From a virus (taxonomy: Duplodnaviria > Caudoviricetes): 52,349 bases of DNA. Made by a program: the position numbers and the translations under genes. The notes under the pieces are model-generated. The model made no database searches. It saw only the letters and a list, made by a program, of their open reading frames with translations, and was not told where the DNA came from. Within the stretch, counting starts at the first letter, position 1, and each line of letters starts with the position of its first letter. Shown one piece after another: positions 128-52,349 of this stretch. The DNA is taken from positions 1 to 52,349 of the IMG/VR virus record IMGVR_UViG_3300025018_000018; one strand, 5' to 3'.

Positions 128-1082
128 TAGCATCATGCTAATGCAGATTGCCTTCTGGATCAGTACGACCAATTTATATATTGATGGGCAATACTGGACG
201 TATCAAAGCACCGGCGATATGCAGTCTAAAGCGTTCCCATATTGGAGCCGTAGCACAATCAACCGTGCCGCCAAAAAATTGGTAGAGAAGGGGTTGCTTT
301 TTGAGGGCAGCTACAACAAAGCAAAGTTTGATCGCACACCTTGGTACGCGCTAAATCCGGATGGCATTAGCCAATTGAAAAGCATCTCACTAACATGGAT
401 AGATAACATGGTTGAGCCGCTTATCGTGTGTCAAAATGACACAAGCGTGTGTCAAAATGACACACGTAGAACGCAAAATGACACACGTAGAACGCAAAAT
501 GACACAACTATACCAGAGATTACTACAGAGACTCCTACAGAGATTACTACAGATGGTATTGCACCTAACGGTGCAGCGCGCTGGATCGCTCAGTTGTCAT
601 TGATGACGTTCATCAAGGATTTAATACCTGCGCTCCAAACCGCAAATGAAGAACTGGAAGCAAAGCGCGAACGCCCCATACAAATCGCCGCCATCATCAA
701 TGCAAAAGTCGTCTCAGATATTGACCGTAAAATCCCACACAACAAACAGGCTAATCCCTGGATGAACAAAACAGAACGCGGTTGGTGCGAGGCAATTATA
801 GACGCAGGCTTCACACCGGAGGATGTTGTCGCATATATCGCAGACCTCGTTCAGGAACCATTCTGGCACGGACGCAGCATCAGCCTAAAATATATCGCGC
901 AAAACATCCGCGCTTGGGCAGAAAAGCCTGTTGAACCAGAACGTGCATCTTTCCAGGAGTTCAAAGGCGAGTTACCCGAACCATTGTTCCCGCCGGAACG
1001 GTGGGACAAACACCGCGATTTTTTCACATCACTGTTTACGAAACCGAGGTGCGACAATGCCGCAGCCAGCACACCATCATAA
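27..1082 (+). CDS. Replication initiator protein (N-terminal winged-helix, phage replisome-organiser type)
   Basis: Motifs LAAEIGLNDSIMLMQIAFW, YWTYQS, FPYWSRSTINRA, FDRTPWY; iterons inside the gene; TIPEITTET linker; lies directly upstream of DnaB. Confidence 0.85.
   Translation: MSKINAPKPVIQKEVTPTVTVILPELAAEIGLNDSIMLMQIAFWISTTNLYIDGQYWTYQSTGDMQSKAFPYWSRSTINRAAKKLVEKGLLFEGSYNKAKFDRTPWYALNPDGISQLKSISLTWIDNMVEPLIVCQNDTSVCQNDTRRTQNDTRRTQNDTTIPEITTETPTEITTDGIAPNGAARWIAQLSLMTFIKDLIPALQTANEELEAKRERPIQIAAIINAKVVSDIDRKIPHNKQANPWMNKTERGWCEAIIDAGFTPEDVVAYIADLVQEPFWHGRSISLKYIAQNIRAWAEKPVEPERASFQEFKGELPEPLFPPERWDKHRDFFTSLFTKPRCDNAAASTPS
426..553. repeat. Iteron array / putative replication origin inside rep
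   Basis: CAAAATGACACA four times at 21-bp spacing (432, 453, 474, 495); the first two are palindromic TGTGTCA-AAA-TGACACA; followed by three 12-bp CAGAGAYTMCTA repeats (514-549). Confidence 0.8.
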
Positions 1083-4711: not shown

Positions 4712-5659
4712 ATGCCATTCCAACTATTAAAAGACGCATACGAAAAATATGAAGCAATTGAAGCGGAAAAAGACGCGGCACGCCGCGCCAAATATCAGAC
4801 AGAACAAAAAGAGCAACGGCGAATTTATGTAGCAAACATCATCAATGTGATGTCTAAATTTTTTGGTGAGGAAATCACCGAAGATCAGATTAGTGATACT
4901 GACCGTGTGTCAATTGGCAATATTGGCATCCAGTTTCACTCGGCAGGCGGAACTTACTTTTCAGCGCAGACTTATAAGCTAGATGACAACGGTAAGCAAA
5001 ATAGTAGAAGCATTCCTATCAACGCATCATGGTCATCAAGTAGACCCCTTATTGATGCCCAACACGATGCATGGGAAGCGTTGCAACGCTTAGATGATTT
5101 TGAGGCTGATGAAGCACCGGAAACATCCGTTGATATTGATTATGGCGAGGCAATCTTTGCCCCCATCAGAGGGCTACGGATGGTGTTAAGCCAAATCACC
5201 GACGAGCTTGGCAACTACCAGGATGACTACATCACAATTTTCACATATGACGATTACGGATACAGAAGATGGTGGAAGGTTTCTGTCAACGATATGTACG
5301 TTTTCAGAATGTGCGAAAACGGCTATGAAGATCAATTCATCTATCGTCAGGGCGCATGGGAAGATTACGTGCGGGATCTCTATAAGATTGTCGAGGAACG
5401 CCGCAAGGAACGCGATCAAGCGCACTCCGAGGAGCAAGCAGCCTATGAAGCGTCACGGTTTGCTCCACTGGACATCAAGCCGAACATCTCAGCCTCCGAA
5501 GGGCTGGCAAAGTTTGAGGCGTTCGCTGCTGTTGAAAAGGAGATAGAACGCGAATACGGTGGTGGAACAGCACAATTGTACTCACCTGCTGAGGCAATGG
5601 TCGCAGCATTGGGTCAAATGATTGATGCCAAAATCAATCAAACTATGGAGCCGTACTAA
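4712..5659 (+). CDS. Hypothetical protein
   Basis: 315-aa ORF, tightly packed in the operon. Confidence 0.8.
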   Translation: MPFQLLKDAYEKYEAIEAEKDAARRAKYQTEQKEQRRIYVANIINVMSKFFGEEITEDQISDTDRVSIGNIGIQFHSAGGTYFSAQTYKLDDNGKQNSRSIPINASWSSSRPLIDAQHDAWEALQRLDDFEADEAPETSVDIDYGEAIFAPIRGLRMVLSQITDELGNYQDDYITIFTYDDYGYRRWWKVSVNDMYVFRMCENGYEDQFIYRQGAWEDYVRDLYKIVEERRKERDQAHSEEQAAYEASRFAPLDIKPNISASEGLAKFEAFAAVEKEIEREYGGGTAQLYSPAEAMVAALGQMIDAKINQTMEPY

Positions 5660-7158
5660 TGGGCGCGTTAACCATCCCATTCGGTACACCTAAGCCTGTC
5701 ACTAGACAGGCTTACCGCCCATCATCCGGCGTGTGGCTGTGCTTCGATATACGCCCACCCGATACCGACAATCCGATGCCCAAATGGTGGCATCTCTCAA
5801 CCATCCAACAATTGAACCCAGGAGCAAATCTGATGGATATGCAATCCGTAACCCAAAAATTGGCGGCGCAATCATTGAGTATTCGCCGCATGACATTCTC
5901 ACTAGGTATTTTCGACATGGTGGCATCTGGGGACAAATCATTCGTCGTTTCTCAGGTGCAGGCTGCTGGATATGAAATCATCCAAGACCCTCCACCTGCT
6001 GAGAAGCACACAGAGCAAGGCACAATCACACTGCTTCAATTCAAGCTGCCATCACAGCAAAATATGGTGGATAGCTACATCACGGTCATTCGTCGTATTG
6101 ACGGTGCAGCGCATGTGCAGCAAGGCAAGATTATCAGCATCTCCAACCTAGTTGAGGATCGCGTTTATCTCGCTTTCAAGGATGGCAAACCGATCTGGTA
6201 CGACTTATCCGCTGCCATCACACCAGAGCCGCATGAAAGCCTCTACAGCGTCGAATCACAGTATGGCGTGCATGTGGGGGATGATTGGCTTGCTGAGAAA
6301 AAGAAACAGGCTGAATCAATCACTGACGAAGAAGCCGCACGATTAGAAGCCACCTGGGAAGCCAAGGTTACACAAGAAGAAATCGCCAGCCTTTCGTCTC
6401 CCGATGGCGCACAGCCTATCGACCTGGATGATTATGTAGCAGCCGTGTATCAAGACGAACCACAGATTAAGCAATACAGATGGGGAACGCTGTATGGGGC
6501 TGTAGAAGCCACATACGCCCATATCCCAGGCGATGCCTATACCACTGTGACATTCAAGACAATGCTCAAACATCCTCATTTGAACGATACCAACACCTAC
6601 GAATGGCAGGTGGGCGAGAACTTCATCCCATACGATGAAGAATCCGATGGGTTGTCTGATGCACTCTACTATTTCACAGAACATCCCGATGATGGGGAAG
6701 CTGTCAGTGAAGCAATCCATAATTTTGAACATGCAATCGCAAACCTCATCATCGAACGCCTGGAAGCCGAGCTAACACAGCTTAAGCAGCGCGGAACAAT
6801 TGTTCCCGCACGTGGGGCAGGGCAGATCGTCAGCAGCATTGATGTCATCTATAAGGGTCAATCCGGTGTGATGGAAACCCGCTTTATCCCGAAGTCATCC
6901 CCAAGCCGGACCCGCGTTCGTGATGTGATCCCCGTTTCTCAAACCATCTATCAGAATGTCAATCCGCTTAACGGGCTGACAACGCCGGAACTGGATTTAG
7001 TACCGTCCAGTAGCGAAGCAATAAGTTTTACCGAAGCAATTGGTTTATTACAGGAAGGTAAACTTACTGATGATGAGGTTGCAAAGATTGGCAACGCCGA
7101 GGCACGAAATAACTTTGTATCATCCATGATGTCCCGTCGGGCGGTGCGGCATGACTAA
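5659..7158 (+). CDS. Hypothetical protein
   Basis: 499-aa ORF; TAATG stop/start coupling. Confidence 0.8.
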   Translation: MGALTIPFGTPKPVTRQAYRPSSGVWLCFDIRPPDTDNPMPKWWHLSTIQQLNPGANLMDMQSVTQKLAAQSLSIRRMTFSLGIFDMVASGDKSFVVSQVQAAGYEIIQDPPPAEKHTEQGTITLLQFKLPSQQNMVDSYITVIRRIDGAAHVQQGKIISISNLVEDRVYLAFKDGKPIWYDLSAAITPEPHESLYSVESQYGVHVGDDWLAEKKKQAESITDEEAARLEATWEAKVTQEEIASLSSPDGAQPIDLDDYVAAVYQDEPQIKQYRWGTLYGAVEATYAHIPGDAYTTVTFKTMLKHPHLNDTNTYEWQVGENFIPYDEESDGLSDALYYFTEHPDDGEAVSEAIHNFEHAIANLIIERLEAELTQLKQRGTIVPARGAGQIVSSIDVIYKGQSGVMETRFIPKSSPSRTRVRDVIPVSQTIYQNVNPLNGLTTPELDLVPSSSEAISFTEAIGLLQEGKLTDDEVAKIGNAEARNNFVSSMMSRRAVRHD

Positions 7159-19214: not shown

Positions 19215-19991
19215 TTATCCTCCAATTAACAATTTAATGAGATCGTATCCACCAATGCCCAGAGTTGCCCCACCTGCTAGAAGAAGCAACCATTTAAGCG
19301 TTGGCGTATTAAACGCATACAGAGCAACCTTCATCATTCGTTCCCGACGTGCAGCAGCTTCGGCATAAATCCGTTGCTGCTCACGCTGCCAGCGTTCCAT
19401 CATCTCTAGCCGCTGGTTGGATTGGGCAACACTATTCGCTTGTGTCGCCTTGATGGTCTTTAATTCATCAAAGATACCCGCCGCCCCACCCTCCCGACCA
19501 AACAAAGCATCCGTTATGCGATCCAGCTTGGATGTGATCCCTGCCATTGATGAAGCATGAAGTTTGATGTCCCGTGTATGTTCATTCAGATCGTCTTGGA
19601 TTTCTTTAATCGCATCATCTCGCGCACCAATTAGCGCATTCTGCGCCTGGATGGTGGCAGTGATTGGTGCGAGTTCTACTTTGATGTCCGACCTAAAATC
19701 CTTTAACATCCCGCGAACCGAGTCCATGAATGAATTGGTCAATTCGCTTACATGGCGGGTAAATTCATTCTGCACCTCACCCACACGGGCATTCACCAGA
19801 TTGGCGGTATGCTGCCTTTCATCCTTAATTGCATCTGAAATGGCGCGTGGCAGTTTATCATCAATCGCACGTTGAACCTCATCGTGAATCACAAGCCGAA
19901 GCTCATCCATAGGATTGCTAGGTGGTATCTCTGGCACATCATCAAGAGGTAGCCTATTCAATTCTTCGATGGGTGTTGTGTCGTCGCTCAT
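19215..19991 (-). CDS. Coiled-coil protein with C-terminal TM segment (lysis-module position)
   Basis: Heptad-rich body; WLLLLAGGATLGIGG tail. Confidence 0.7.
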   Translation of the reverse strand: MSDDTTPIEELNRLPLDDVPEIPPSNPMDELRLVIHDEVQRAIDDKLPRAISDAIKDERQHTANLVNARVGEVQNEFTRHVSELTNSFMDSVRGMLKDFRSDIKVELAPITATIQAQNALIGARDDAIKEIQDDLNEHTRDIKLHASSMAGITSKLDRITDALFGREGGAAGIFDELKTIKATQANSVAQSNQRLEMMERWQREQQRIYAEAAARRERMMKVALYAFNTPTLKWLLLLAGGATLGIGGYDLIKLLIGG

Positions 19992-20005: not shown

Positions 20006-20030
20006 AGAACTTTTGTTCTATATTATACCA
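20006..20030 (-). promoter_or_regulatory. Extended -10 promoter followed by a perfect LexA-type box
   Basis: Minus strand reads TGGTATAAT-AT-AGAAC-AAAA-GTTCT. Confidence 0.75.
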
Positions 20031-40096: not shown

Positions 40097-40138
40097 CTTC
40101 GCACTGCTATTTTTTTGACTCACATATCCAAAAAAGTG

Positions 40139-40212
40139 CCCCCAGGGCAGGAGTCGAACCTGCTACCTCAGCGTTGATTTAACGCTGCGCTCTACCGTTG
40201 AGCTACCCGTGG
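40139..40212 (-). tRNA. tRNA-like gene with non-canonical 9-nt anticodon loop (isotype undetermined)
   Basis: CCACGGG-TA-GCTC-AACGGTA-GAGC-G-CAGCG-TTAAATCAA-CGCTG-AGGTA-GCAGG-TTCGACT-CCTGC-CCTGGGG-G; no encoded CCA. Confidence 0.8.
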
Positions 40213-43266: not shown

Positions 43267-44001
43267 CTACAACTCATCCCGCAACTTACGCAATTCCTCG
43301 ATCTGATCGTCAATCAACTGCCGCACCTGCGCTTTCTCATGCGCCTGCAATTGCTTACTTTTCCGTGTGAAATTGCGATATTTCAGCCGACTTTTAATCA
43401 AAAACATCTCAAACTTGCCCGCTTCCCCCGGTAGGGCAGGGGGCTTTCCATGTTTTAGGTAATATTGAAACTTATCGACGCTGGTAAGATTTAGATCAAT
43501 GGCAGCTTGGATCAATTTTCGCTGATCATCCTCAGAATATGGAGCTAGCAACTTATGGTGAGAGAAAGTCAATTTATCGGTGCGCACCGATAAATTGACT
43601 TGTCGTGCTACATATGCCATATCATTAATTGTGGTCACGCTGTATCCGGTTAAGTCCGCCAGCTCATCGTATTTCTTGCCCCAAAAATCTGCACCATAAA
43701 GGGCAAGGTCTGCAATGATCCACTGAATAGCGCGGTTGACTTGCTCCGTGTGGCGGAACATCGTCAGCCACTCGTCCTCATCAAGCCCTTCCAGTACTTG
43801 CACAATGCCAACGTCGCTCAAGACAAAATGTCCGATGTGTGTATGCCCGTTTTCATCTGTACGGAATGGAGCAATACCATTTTTGCGCGTGGGCAGCTTC
43901 AACCCAAACGCTTGGGTAATATCCGGCACGATGGCAGATGATCTATTATCCCCATTCTCCAACGCATCCATAAATTTACTGCGGCTGTCGTCTTTTGCCA
44001 T
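43267..44001 (-). CDS. LmbU-family-like HTH DNA-binding protein (candidate ParA partner)
   Basis: QWIIADLALYG...YDELADLTGYSVTTINDMAYVARQV...KLTFSHHKLLA matches the LmbU pattern; TAATG-coupled to parA. Confidence 0.7.
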   Translation of the reverse strand: MAKDDSRSKFMDALENGDNRSSAIVPDITQAFGLKLPTRKNGIAPFRTDENGHTHIGHFVLSDVGIVQVLEGLDEDEWLTMFRHTEQVNRAIQWIIADLALYGADFWGKKYDELADLTGYSVTTINDMAYVARQVNLSVRTDKLTFSHHKLLAPYSEDDQRKLIQAAIDLNLTSVDKFQYYLKHGKPPALPGEAGKFEMFLIKSRLKYRNFTRKSKQLQAHEKAQVRQLIDDQIEELRKLRDEL

Positions 44002-44816
44002 TAGGCTACCTCACCCGCTTGAATTTTTTCCAGGATGTTATCAACGATTGGTTGTAGCTCGGCTACTGCCACCTTCGCTTGACGACGCTCAGAATAATCT
44101 TTCGTGTTGGCACGCTTATAGATGCTACGCTGTAATTGTGATGCCTGCACCCATGCGGTTAATGAACGCATAGGATTGAATACATTTAAGTGATCATACT
44201 TACCACACAGCCACCCATAATTGACCTGTTGCACCTTCTGGCTTGCGTCAAACTGATTTGGCACGATGCCTAGAATTTTGGCTGTTGATAGCCCTTGAGA
44301 TTCTGCCTGTTTACCAATCTGCTGCAAGTACCCCATTGTTGTTCCCAAACTTCGCACGCTGTCCGGCTGTGTTAGCGTTGGTAGCAAAATATAATCAGAT
44401 GCAAAATACAATCCAGCATGGATGTTCGTCAGTCCTGGCGATGTGTCCACCAGAATAACATCAAATGCTGGACGCAGATTATCCAAATGTTCCATCAAAA
44501 GAGAAGGCGTGTCAGTATGTGATTCAACTTGAATTTGACCATCACTGGATGGCAATAACGCCATCACCGCATTTTTGTCACCTGTGAACTCATGATCCAC
44601 TGGCAGCAATACGTCCTGATAATCCGCGCCATGCAGCATCATTGCCAGTAGTCCATCTGTGCGCGGATGACGTAAACCAGTAGTAGCATTACCCTGCCCA
44701 TCTGCGTCGATGACCAACACTCTAGCACCTGCACGTGCCAGCCCTGCTCCCAAATTAATTGTAATCGTTGTTTTACCAACGCCACCTTTACGCCCCATCA
44801 CTGAAATAACTTTCAT
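44001..44816 (-). CDS. parA: ParA/Soj family partition ATPase
   Basis: KGGVGKTT deviant Walker A; VLVIDADGQGNAT; DVILVDTSP; ILGIVPN. Confidence 0.95.
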   Translation of the reverse strand: MKVISVMGRKGGVGKTTITINLGAGLARAGARVLVIDADGQGNATTGLRHPRTDGLLAMMLHGADYQDVLLPVDHEFTGDKNAVMALLPSSDGQIQVESHTDTPSLLMEHLDNLRPAFDVILVDTSPGLTNIHAGLYFASDYILLPTLTQPDSVRSLGTTMGYLQQIGKQAESQGLSTAKILGIVPNQFDASQKVQQVNYGWLCGKYDHLNVFNPMRSLTAWVQASQLQRSIYKRANTKDYSERRQAKVAVAELQPIVDNILEKIQAGEVA

Positions 44817-44880
44817 GAGTCTTGTCTCCCTTTGTTTTGGTATATAATATGATCGAAACAGGCTGGTCTCCCTGCCTGGC

Positions 44881-44914
44881 AAAACCCGCCCTCGGATCAG
44901 GGCGTTTTTTGTTT
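44881..44914. terminator. Hairpin terminator separating par genes from the upstream operon
   Basis: CGCCCT-CGGATC-AGGGCG flanked by A- and T-runs. Confidence 0.6.
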
Positions 44915-46708: not shown

Positions 46709-46722
46709 GGAACAATTGTTCC
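46709..46722. promoter_or_regulatory. Perfect LexA-type box
   Basis: GGAAC-AATT-GTTCC in the gap upstream of 46693(-). Confidence 0.55.
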
Positions 46723-46750
46723 GTCCAACTCGTGCAAATTTTGCACAGGT

Positions 46751-46927
46751 TCAATCTTCTTTTGACTGTTGACGCAACCATTCGACATGCGCCTGCACTG
46801 CTTCTTCCGTCGTCTGCACATCCGTGTGATGCGTAAACCCGCAATCATGACATGAATTGATACAGTCCATCAGATCACGGTAAATCATCATACTGCCGCA
46901 CGCCGGACACGCCATGTAATCATCCAT
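46751..46927 (-). CDS. Small zinc-ribbon protein (58 aa, not in the ORF track)
   Basis: MDDYMACPACGS...SCHDCGF...QSKED-stop, translated by hand. Confidence 0.7.
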   Translation of the reverse strand: MDDYMACPACGSMMIYRDLMDCINSCHDCGFTHHTDVQTTEEAVQAHVEWLRQQSKED

Positions 46928-47183
46928 GGAAGAAAATACCTTTTATCACATCTTCCGGCGTGCCATCTGCCAAATGATCTGCAAATGTTCTAGGCTCTCC
47001 TGTCAGAAGATACCCATAGCTAACATCGTATATCACCATCATTTTTTCTTGAACAAATGACTCTGGGGTGCGATCCCCATTCTCAATATGTGCAAGCCTG
47101 CGCTGTTCGATTCCAATTAATTTTGCCGCCTGTGATTGGGAAAGACCTGCGCCTTCTCTGGCACGTGTAAACTGATTCTTCAT
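46920..47183 (-). CDS. XRE-family HTH regulator
   Basis: AREGAGLSQSQAAKLIGIEQRRLAHIENGDRTP...YDVSYGYLLTG. Confidence 0.9.
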   Translation of the reverse strand: MKNQFTRAREGAGLSQSQAAKLIGIEQRRLAHIENGDRTPESFVQEKMMVIYDVSYGYLLTGEPRTFADHLADGTPEDVIKGIFFHG

Positions 47184-47664: not shown

Positions 47665-47910
47665 TTATTGCTCGATGCTATCCAAATACAGCAGGTCACT
47701 AATATCACATGGAACCCAGTTGCATAGCGCAACAATCACATCACTATGCACGTGCTTAATCTCGTTCGCAGGTGACATCCAAGTACCAACCGTGTTAGGA
47801 GATAAGCCTGTTGCCTGTGCAATCTCCCTATTGGTAATGTTCCGTTTTTCGTTCATCCCCTTCTGGGCAACCAGGATTTGTAATGCTGATCTGACGACAG
47901 TTTTACTCAT
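47665..47910 (-). CDS. Cro/C1-type HTH regulator (no peptidase domain)
   Basis: ITNREIAQATGLSPNTVGTWM...ALCNWVPCDISDLL. Confidence 0.85.
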   Translation of the reverse strand: MSKTVVRSALQILVAQKGMNEKRNITNREIAQATGLSPNTVGTWMSPANEIKHVHSDVIVALCNWVPCDISDLLYLDSIEQ

Positions 47911-47920
47911 CAGGTATCGC

Positions 47921-48139
47921 CTAATGCTTTGTGTCAGTTTCATCTTCATCAGTTGGATACACCTTCTTAATATCTTCCAACCGATCCATCAAATCTGGGC
48001 GATACCGTTTGAAAAGCTCTGCAAGCGCGTCGTTATCACTTACAGACTTGCCCGTTTCCATCTGGATTTCACCCGCGAATATGCGTACCAACCGACGAGT
48101 ATCTTCACTGGTTCTCATATACACGTTCTTTTCTCCCAT
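47921..48139 (-). CDS. Small putative DNA-binding protein (ribbon-helix-helix-like)
   Basis: KNVYMRTSEDTRRLVR...SDNDALAELF; RBS AGGAG. Confidence 0.55.
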   Translation of the reverse strand: MGEKNVYMRTSEDTRRLVRIFAGEIQMETGKSVSDNDALAELFKRYRPDLMDRLEDIKKVYPTDEDETDTKH

Positions 48140-48283
48140 ATTTATATCTCCTATTTATTATATCAAATGTTTGGTTTGACAAAATGTTTTCATATGCTAT
48201 ACTGTTAGATGTGTATAAGAAAATCACATTGTCGCCTCTTTATAAATAATAACACATAAAGAGCAGCACATTAACAACCGCAT

Positions 48284-51485: not shown

Positions 51486-52033
51486 CAGATTTATCAACCA
51501 TTCAGAATGAACTCGCCGCCGCGCTCCAAGAAGCAGAGCAGGCGAAGGCAGAATTTAACACCATTGAAACAGCCTACCAAGAGCAGCGCGAAGCCGCCCT
51601 GAAGGCATGGGAAGCCGCCAACTCGGAACTCGTCGCCAAGCGCGAAGCTGCTAAGGCGAAGGCTGACGAAGCAAACGAAAGCGCATCCAGCAAGCGCGAA
51701 GCGGCAAAGGAAGCACTCATCGAACACTGGGAATCCAATCCCGAAGACAAGAAGCCTGTCGATGGCTTCTCCCTGCGACTGGACAAGGACATCAACTTGG
51801 ATGCTTTGAGAATCAATGAAATTATTGCAGCAGGGGCGACCTTCCTTCTCAAAGTGGACGAGAAGGTGGCAAAGACCTTTATTGCCGATAACGCCGAGCA
51901 ACTAGCGGATAATTGGGTTATCAAGCCGCATCTGCGCTCCTGGATGCCATCCTTAGCGAACGCTATCAGCACCAAGCACACGCCCATGATTAGCGATGCA
52001 AAGCTGTTAAATATAAGTGTTGGCGAAGGTTAA
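51482..52033 (+). CDS. Coiled-coil protein, Gam/gp157-like
   Basis: Ala/Glu-rich N-terminal coiled coil then FLLKVDEK; sits next to the recombinase. Confidence 0.5.
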   Translation: MTDLSTIQNELAAALQEAEQAKAEFNTIETAYQEQREAALKAWEAANSELVAKREAAKAKADEANESASSKREAAKEALIEHWESNPEDKKPVDGFSLRLDKDINLDALRINEIIAAGATFLLKVDEKVAKTFIADNAEQLADNWVIKPHLRSWMPSLANAISTKHTPMISDAKLLNISVGEG

Positions 52034-52036
52034 TAT

Positions 52037-52064
52037 TTGCACAACTAGGGTGTTGTGCTATACT
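52037..52064 (+). promoter_or_regulatory. Predicted rep promoter overlapped by a palindrome
   Basis: TTGCAC-16 bp-TATACT with TG extension; GCACAAC-TAGGGT-GTTGTGC. Confidence 0.7.
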
Positions 52065-52079
52065 CTGAAAACGTCGCAT

Positions 52080-52156
52080 AAAGCAAAAGCCACCGGGGAA
52101 AACGGTGGCAGCGGCTAAATGTACGGTTTTCGGGGTGTGGGAACACCCTACGGGAT
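52080..52156 (-). ncRNA. Predicted antisense counter-transcript (about 75 nt) in the rep leader
   Basis: Minus-strand TTGACA(52191-52186)-17 bp-TAGTAT(52168-52163); terminator GCCACCG-N7-CGGTGGC-TTTTGCTTT. Confidence 0.6.
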
Positions 52157-52206
52157 GCCCTTATACTACCGTGTAAGGTTAGATGTGTCAATATACTCAT
52201 CTGATT

Positions 52207-52222
52207 TGGAACAATTGTTCCA
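52207..52222. promoter_or_regulatory. Perfect LexA-type box 27 bp upstream of the rep start codon
   Basis: TGGAAC-AATT-GTTCCA. Confidence 0.65.
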
Positions 52223-52349
52223 GCATCCCTCAATTAAAGCGAGGGATTATGTCAAAAATTAATGCACCAAAACCAGTTATCCAGAAAGAGGTAACGCCAA
52301 CCGTCACAGTCATCTTGCCGGAGTTGGCTGCCGAAATCGGTCTGAATGA
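52223..52349. repeat. Copy of bases 1-127
   Basis: Identical sequence. Confidence 0.95.

Follow-up and report, generated by a model that had tools for sequence, protein, structure and literature searches.

The replication initiator gene (rep) of a tailed phage (Duplodnaviria; Caudoviricetes), represented by the IMG/VR record IMGVR_UViG_3300025018_000018, is preceded by a structured leader that is likely faced by a counter-transcribed RNA of about 76 nucleotides (nt), and antisense RNA control of rep in the style of the plasmids pSK41 and pT181 is the best explanation of this arrangement, with about an even chance of being right. The kind of mechanism is textbook; what would be new is its occurrence in this phage, and the interest lies mainly there. 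The window analysed here is the whole record of 52,349 nt. An earlier note on the same DNA had proposed, at the end of the window, an antisense RNA acting on rep, a hairpin hiding the rep ribosome-binding site (RBS), a feedback by Rep and an input from the SOS response, converging in a switch between plasmid and lytic replication; the antisense RNA and the RBS hairpin were supported in silico, the Rep feedback was not, and the plasmid-lytic switch is conjectural. The present analysis adds a leader predicted to be bistable, in which a pre-emptor segment would link the antisense target to the RBS hairpin. As a modelled switch, this pre-emptor mechanism is less certain than antisense control as such.

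Predicted antisense RNA and bistable leader

The antisense promoter TTGACA-17-TAGTAT and the intrinsic terminator described in the earlier note were both found, and together they delimit the predicted RNA of about 76 nt. An 80-nt stretch containing it folds as two stem-loops with -24.2 kcal/mol (z score -3.46; 1/200 shuffles). Its target lies 93-168 nt upstream of the rep ATG, and the RNA overlaps no upstream gene, ending about 48 nt past the stop codon at 52033. Duplex folding against 68 start regions gave no clear outlier as a target in trans; the best duplex reached -38.3 kcal/mol against a mean of -22.9 (sd 6.9), by a method that over-extends duplexes.

On the plus strand, the promoter scan recovered TTTGCA-17-TATACT followed by a leader of about 178 nt, in agreement with the promoter and the leader of about 180 nt proposed before. 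The leader folds with -72.9 kcal/mol (z score -5.5), a stability reached by 0/200 shuffles. All five hairpins that had been named form in the predicted fold at their expected places, CTTATAC/GTGTAAG including one G-U pair. The last of them, ATCCCTC/GAGGGAT, forms alone and hides the rep RBS as claimed, and a competing upstream pairing was found in addition. The inverted repeat GCACAAC-N6-GTTGTGC within the sense promoter, a possible operator, has no second exact copy in the genome.

The competing pairing is made by the pre-emptor GGGAUGC. In the minimum-energy fold of 52071-52290, the pre-emptor helix closes a three-hairpin junction and the Shine-Dalgarno (SD) sequence is open. Forcing each conformer in turn gave -74.0 kcal/mol for the pre-emptor helix and -73.6 kcal/mol for the RBS hairpin, and because of these near-equal energies the leader is predicted to be bistable. 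Since the antisense RNA is predicted to start at A 52156, the initial five nt of the pre-emptor would fall within its duplex with the leader. Folding with and without the antisense RNA, a check that the earlier note had suggested, closed the RBS hairpin in silico once the target was blocked: the mean probability of an unpaired SD fell from 0.276 in the free leader to 0.009 with 52081-52156 blocked. Any block reaching 52152 or beyond left this probability at 0.009-0.015, and a block ending at 52150 left it at 0.157. Among mononucleotide shuffles of 52071-52159, 2/200 reached 0.276, with a median of 0.010.

Firing of the promoters, pairing of the RNAs, the response of translation and binding of LexA are here read from the motifs, positions and predicted folds that the sequence offers, and would combine as follows. 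Sense transcripts from the promoter at 52036-52064, perhaps joined by read-through from the upstream operon, would carry the ~178-nt leader in two alternative folds. In the first, pairing of GGGAUGC (52152-58) with GCAUCCC (52223-29) would keep the SD GAGGGA free and rep translated; in the second, pairing of ATCCCTC (52225-31) with GAGGGAT (52241-47) would hide the SD. The ~76-nt minus-strand RNA would pair with the leader, probably loop-to-loop first, and remove the pre-emptor, whereupon the hiding hairpin would win and Rep synthesis would fall. The amount of antisense RNA would rise with the number of genome copies, giving negative feedback on replication. Between the antisense promoter and the RBS, GGAACAATTGTTCC would, as a LexA site, add a DNA-damage input.

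Table. Positions in the window of the features discussed, most of them predicted from sequence (-35 and -10, promoter boxes; ORF, open reading frame; aa, amino acids)
Feature	Positions	Strand	Remarks
Sense promoter	52036..52064	+	TTTGCA-17-TATACT, TG before -10, 9/12 plus TG, in non-coding gap; predicted start ~52071
Inverted repeat, possible operator	52039..52058	.	GCACAAC-N6-GTTGTGC between -35 and -10 of the sense promoter
rep leader	52071..52248	+	About 178 nt, five local hairpins
Predicted counter-transcribed RNA	52081..52156	-	About 76 nt: short 5' tail, stem-loop 1 (52149-52132), spacer, terminator stem-loop
Intrinsic terminator	52089..52109	-	7-pair stem, 6 GC, 7-nt loop; then TTTTGCTTTA on the minus strand
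Leader ORF, speculative	52119..52262	+	47 codons; start inside the antisense target, stop 11 nt past the rep ATG
Predicted pre-emptor GGGAUGC	52152..52158	+	Pairs with GCAUCCC 52223-52229; first 5 nt inside the antisense target
Antisense promoter	52163..52191	-	TTGACA-17-TAGTAT, 10/12; predicted start A at 52156, seven nt after -10
Iteron half-site match TGTGTCAA	52184..52191	+	Overlaps the antisense -35; chance-level match
Perfect palindrome GGAACAATTGTTCC	52208..52221	.	GAAC-N4-GTTC box; rep ATG follows after 27 nt; upstream of the antisense -35 by 17 nt
RBS-sequestering hairpin	52225..52247	+	ATCCCTC (52225-31)/GAGGGAT (52241-47), 9-nt loop, -9.8 kcal/mol local; SD GAGGGA 52241-52246
rep start	52249..52349	+	Continues as 27-1082 via the 127-nt terminal overlap; 351 aa
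Iteron array, likely origin	425..515	+	4 copies of CAAAATGACACA, 21-nt spacing, first two extended to palindromes, inside rep

Whether the antisense RNA is made

In a genome-wide scan, strong promoter-like sites were defined by a score of at least 10/12 and a pair as a promoter followed by a same-strand terminator within about 200 nt; 200 block-shuffles served as the null, and the non-coding 6.3% of the genome was set by the analyst's own gene list. A rival view, fairly unlikely on balance, is that no antisense RNA exists. The match to a minus-strand promoter would then be fortuitous, the hairpin at 52089-52109 would act on the plus strand, stabilising the rep mRNA at its 5' end or ending the upstream operon, and the hairpins would be ordinary leader structure. 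In favour of this view, strong promoter-like sites are equally frequent in the genome and in the shuffles (10 vs 9.6), and the local counts are at chance level for promoter-like sites (2 vs 0.9 +/- 0.8 in shuffles) as for terminator-like sites (2 vs 1.4 +/- 1.2). However, seven of the ten strong sites fall in the non-coding 6.3% of the genome, where about 0.6 would be expected from the shuffles, and this makes a strong site in a non-coding gap of this phage probably a genuine promoter. The six remaining non-coding sites face a gene downstream on their own strand, in one case a tRNA gene, although the next plus-strand gene after the site at 48176 is unclear; the antisense promoter is the only strong non-coding site that points backwards. 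Against the rival stand also the T run, which follows the 52089-52109 stem on the minus strand and is missing from the plus strand, and the predicted antisense start, which falls exactly on the pre-emptor.

No promoter-terminator pair other than the antisense unit was found in the genome, compared with a shuffle mean of 0.15 pairs. Several observations nevertheless weigh against antisense control or against the switch as modelled. At least one such pair occurs in 27/200 shuffles, which is not rare, so that the pair alone is not significant. At 49550-49531, a strong hairpin that on the plus strand is preceded by a run of A and not followed by one of T represents a minus-oriented terminator within a plus-strand operon, and no minus-strand promoter was found near it; a terminator by itself is thus no proof of a transcript. 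The predicted fold depends on the 3' end chosen: the minimum-energy fold is open with ends at 52260, 52280, 52290 and 52310, and already closed with ends at 52270 or 52340. About one 7-nt complement to the pre-emptor would be expected by chance in a leader as long as this one (a rough estimate of our own), and the argument for the switch is a thermodynamic prediction.

No homology to the leader was detected in 96 loci carrying relatives of Rep or of the 456-aa protein encoded upstream, the best blastn match being 17 nt (E 1). Among Rep-related loci, 51 had 350 nt or more of upstream DNA; the combination of antisense promoter and terminator occurs in 0/51, and the device is therefore not a trait of the Rep family. 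An antisense promoter-like site is present in 12 of these 51 loci and a sense one in 9, which mostly reflects composition. A blastn search of the leader region against the phage collection gave no match, the exact 21-mer of the terminator had 0 matches in IMG/VR, and Rfam matched nothing between 45000 and 52349 at E values of 1 or below, its single hit in the whole window being a tRNA.

The loci for these comparisons came from several searches. Rep matched one locus in IMG/VR (45% identity), with a different upstream layout, and none in the GTDB genomes; a Rep alignment searched against metagenomes gave 80 loci (34-55% identity). The upstream 456-aa protein matched 15 loci in IMG/VR (34-67% identity). 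DnaB had no match in IMG/VR or GTDB, and P0038, its counterpart in the closest relative, had none in IMG/VR. The large terminase subunit TerL matched 54 loci in IMG/VR, and none of the 10 long TerL-related viral records that were checked (0/10) contained a Rep match. In the best metagenomic relative of Rep (L019, 55%), positions 2083-2266 carry a TTGACA-17-TAGTAT site and a ~150-nt leader before a small gene and rep; this leader contains no antisense promoter or terminator.

Alternative modes of action

That the antisense RNA is made and acts in some other mode is judged quite unlikely. It could (a) block coupling between a leader ORF and rep, (b) direct the rep mRNA to decay by RNase III or (c) reflect interference between convergent promoters. 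Coupling of this kind is known from R1 tap and ColIb-P9 repY, in which translation of a leader ORF opens rep, and the position of the 47-codon ORF relative to the target and the rep ATG (Table) would suit it, but the ORF lacks an SD core in -20 to -4. For decay, the duplex of the lambda OOP RNA offers an analogue, being cut by RNase III with ensuing mRNA decay. Interference would be favoured by the convergent starts at ~52071 and ~52156, about 85 nt apart. The OOP precedent, with RNase III-dependent cleavage and a LexA site according to excerpts of PMC5869508, supports the second mode, but unlike OOP the phage RNA overlaps no upstream gene. All three modes are compatible with the pre-emptor model and not mutually exclusive with it.

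Transcription attenuation of the pT181 type was rejected as the main mode, as the scan called no plus-strand terminator in the leader; together with the poor U tract of the hairpin described below, this makes translational control likelier than attenuation.

Comparison with known systems

In design, the closest match is pSK41, a representative of the staphylococcal RepA_N plasmids. Its RNAI is about 83 nt long with two stem-loops and a 5' tail; its target in the leader precedes the start region by about 100 nt, and binding induces an RBS-hiding hairpin (excerpts of PMC5703833). The phage RNA of ~76 nt is likewise predicted to form two stem-loops, its target lies at a similar place, 93-168 nt upstream, and the same RBS-hiding outcome is predicted. 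Different from pSK41, the phage Rep is O/DnaD-like, not RepA_N, with no sequence similarity; the element is a tailed phage that encodes terminase, portal and capsid proteins, the leader bears a LexA-type box, and the phage system is a prediction from sequence.

The same excerpts describe, for pT181 RNAI and pIP501 RNAIII, a pre-emptor that competes for the 5' arm of an RBS-containing hairpin before rep and is removed by the antisense RNA (PMC5703833). The phage leader would resemble these systems in having a pre-emptor that competes with an arm of the RBS hairpin just before the rep start. In contrast, the hairpin induced in pT181 and pIP501 is a terminator, whereas behind that of the phage stands UUAUGU, which makes a poor U tract.

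In position, the closest match is the OOP RNA of the temperate phage lambda, which is 77 nt long and read leftward from just upstream of the O-type replication gene. The predicted phage RNA is also short and read away from an O-type gene, with its promoter just before the gene. OOP, however, reaches into the 3' end of cII and affects the cII mRNA through RNase III, whereas the phage RNA would target the rep leader. A LexA-binding site is described in the oop-pO promoter region, and the OOP-cII mRNA hybrid is cleaved by RNase III-dependent and independent routes (excerpts of PMC5869508). The phage box differs in type (GAAC-N4-GTTC) and place, lying 17 nt upstream of the antisense -35 and thus outside the promoter. 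LexA operators on replication or regulatory genes are further known from extrachromosomal prophages, namely GIL01 of Bacillus thuringiensis and the antirepressor of N15; their LexA sites overlap promoters, unlike the leader box of the phage, which overlaps no predicted promoter. The phage element is no sequence relative of pSK41, pT181 or lambda OOP, and the likeness to them would be one of working only, if it is functional.

If antisense control is real, a tailed phage of an uncultured lineage would have equipped its replication module independently with the antisense RNA copy-control logic of small Gram-positive plasmids, with an unrelated initiator and adjoining a host SOS operator. Such a phage would serve as a case study of the way in which phage-plasmids may tie their copy number to DNA damage, and the region would provide a compact part of ~220 nt, testable for copy control in bacteria without genetic tools. 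If it is not real, the region is merely a structured leader.

The GAAC-N4-GTTC box in the leader

The earlier note had described a perfect SOS box downstream of the antisense -35. The palindrome GGAACAATTGTTCC is indeed perfect; it is a box of the GAAC-N4-GTTC type, not the CTGT-N8-ACAG type of E. coli. Its core 12-mer GAACAATTGTTC at 52209-52220 fits the GAAC-N4-GTTC motif perfectly, and, counted from the two predicted starts, the box spans about +138 to +151 on the sense side and -52 to -65 on the antisense side. Six GAAC-N4-GTTC sites were counted in the phage, compared with 0.62 expected, a number reached by 0/100 shuffles. The 14-mer GGAACAATTGTTCC is present in three letter-perfect copies, at 6793, 46709 and 52208, and among the 10-mers repeated between the leader and the remaining genome this palindrome alone stands out. 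A LexA of the Chloroflexi, according to a 2002 paper, reportedly binds this motif. A GAAC-N4-GTTC LexA motif is known from Firmicutes and Actinobacteria (an excerpt of PMC3323433).

The sample of lexA genes consisted of 34 Anaerolineae loci, the 30 best of 114 matching genomes (121 searched) and 4 others. A relaxed box was found within 300 nt upstream in 33/34 of these loci, nearly always between TTGACA and TATAAT, from which it follows that canonical promoters are used in Anaerolineae. The lexA promoters (L179-L225) are regular in build, with TTGACA, 2-3 nt, GAAC-N4-GTTC, 2-3 nt and (TG)nTATAAT, and in at least seven of the loci another box follows 20-30 nt farther downstream. The box of the Bellilinea caldifistulae lexA promoter (L180) is identical to the 12-mer of the phage. 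On this indirect evidence, GGAACAATTGTTCC is most likely a host LexA site giving a DNA-damage input. The SOS input at rep claimed previously thus keeps part of its ground, in the box type shared with the lexA loci and the threefold 14-mer, and loses part in the missing promoter overlap and in a host that is guessed.

These last two points count against the LexA assignment. The promoter scan found no predicted promoter overlapping 52208-52221, and LexA bound there must therefore act as a roadblock or in another unusual way. Among the DnaB homologues that name an organism, 5/6 come from metagenome-assembled genomes of Chloroflexota (Anaerolineae, Phototrophicales; 34-47% identity), and a scan of GTDB with a DnaB alignment gave mostly Anaerolineae, with a bias from the Anaerolineae sequences that the alignment contained. 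A portal search of 401 Anaerolineae genomes yielded 9 weak matches (23-30% identity). A Chloroflexota host is thus weakly suggested, by DnaB similarity of 30-47% alone.

Instead of a LexA site, GGAACAATTGTTCC may be an operator for a regulator of the phage itself, the candidates being its three small helix-turn-helix proteins (2527-2904, 46920-47183 and 47665-47949), or a protein-bound RNA hairpin; this is rather unlikely. If a regulator of the phage bound there as a roadblock within transcription units, the arrangement would be similar to the stoperators of mycobacteriophages. The three letter-perfect 14-mers are more uniform than host LexA boxes, and none overlaps a predicted promoter. Two of them lie inside operons, 21 and 27 nt before start codons (46693 and 52249), both followed by AG; the outer G...C flanks of the 14-mer differ from the A/C...G/T/A flanks common in Anaerolineae lexA boxes, and as RNA the palindrome would form a hairpin of -7.3 kcal/mol. 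Against this reading stands the identity of the core 12-mer with the Bellilinea box, and the looser GAAC-N4-GTTC family is also enriched, one member being placed directly after a -10 box (20007), a normal position for LexA.

That member, AGAACAAAAGTTCT at 20007-20018 on the minus strand, is separated by 2 nt from a preceding TGgTATAAT and by about 16 nt from the start codon (ATG) of the gene at 19215-19991; it probably marks a promoter under LexA control where the structural block ends. The gene encodes 258 aa without a Pfam or PHROG family, and the Atlas gives unnamed clusters only. The copy of GGAACAATTGTTCC at 46709-46722 lies between two small genes of a minus-strand operon with no promoter nearby, and adjoins a 15-nt palindrome, GTGCAAATTTTGCAC (46731-46745). 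The copy at 6793-6806 falls inside the ORF at 5659-7158.

That an Anaerolineae plasmid-phage combines, in one 180-nt leader, a pSK41-like pre-emptor switch with one of a set of identical high-affinity host LexA sites, serving as roadblocks inside operons and not at promoters, is an improbable conjunction as a whole. If true, a single RNA would serve as the readout of both copy control and SOS-triggered runaway replication, in a phage of the Chloroflexota, a phylum whose phages and plasmids have, to our knowledge, hardly been studied.

Iteron half-site and Rep feedback

The overlap of the antisense -35 with an iteron half-site, on which a feedback by Rep had been built, does exist, and the half-site itself is at chance level. 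Its 8-mer TGTGTCAA occurs in 4 copies compared with 2.6 expected, and 23/100 shuffles reach 4. With 3 mismatches to the 12-nt iteron core, it is one of 86 sites with at most three mismatches, where 66 are expected. As the half-site stands alone and its 8-mer is not enriched, Rep feedback through it is not supported.

Replication module and genome context

With its 52,349 nt, the window spans an entire viral contig, circular (or terminally redundant), with the rep leader at the join, since its last 127 nt (52223-52349) exactly repeat the first (1-127), leaving 52,222 nt of unique sequence. The rep ATG at 52249, equivalent to position 27, corrects the start at 52250 given earlier and agrees with the homologue in L019, which aligns from residue 1. 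A gap of 215 nt separates rep from the upstream ORF, whose stop codon is at 52033. An SD core in -20 to -4 precedes 34/69 putative starts, compared with 8.2% of random positions, so that SD-led initiation is relevant in this phage.

The gene downstream of the leader could be confirmed as a replication initiator by PHROG matches, by the DnaB helicase gene that follows it (1075-2466) and by the iterons within it. Rep matches the PHROG families 6493, 11233, 428 and 678 with E values from 1.7e-31 to 2e-5, including a DnaD-like helicase loader (1.7e-31), replication initiation proteins (6e-24 and 1.5e-14) and an O-like family (2.2e-9); the Pfam scan gave no family. The QNDT repeats encoded by the iterons are conserved among members of the Rep family, and the origin is therefore probably located within the rep gene, as in lambda O. 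In a second assembly of the same phage (P0001; 52,342-nt contig, Rep of 344 aa), Rep is identical except for one missing 7-aa repeat, which maps to 453-515 of the window and to Rep residues of about 147-153. As the 7-aa repeat corresponds to one 21-nt iteron, the number of iterons differs between populations. Another near-identical assembly has 52,345 nt.

A close relative is found on a 51,106-nt contig, with 92% identity in TerL (P0146), 63% in DnaB (P0038) and 74% in the C-terminal half of Rep (P0002). The N-terminal domain of P0002, a probable origin-binding domain, is unrelated to that of the present Rep. Judged by the shared C-terminal half and TerL and by the unrelated N-terminal domain, the specificity module of Rep appears to have been swapped between close phages.

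Other genes encode a terminase, portal, capsid-protease, methyltransferases, RNase H and an exonuclease. A ParA gene (44001-44882, minus strand) forms a pair with a neighbouring gene, the two spanning 43267-44882; the neighbour, of 244 aa, has a weak match to LmbU (53 bits compared with a cut-off of 125). No integrase was found by Pfam and PHROG among the scanned ORFs, which together with ParA is consistent with a plasmid prophage. The gene at 2527-2904 is the lone minus-strand gene inside the plus-strand replication block, with its own terminator at 2500-2469, and encodes a 125-aa helix-turn-helix protein of the Cro/CI type, a candidate prophage repressor. The phage also carries a tRNA-Ile gene (40138-40212, minus strand) with the unusual anticodon AAT and its own TTGACA-17-TATTCT site at 40327-40299.

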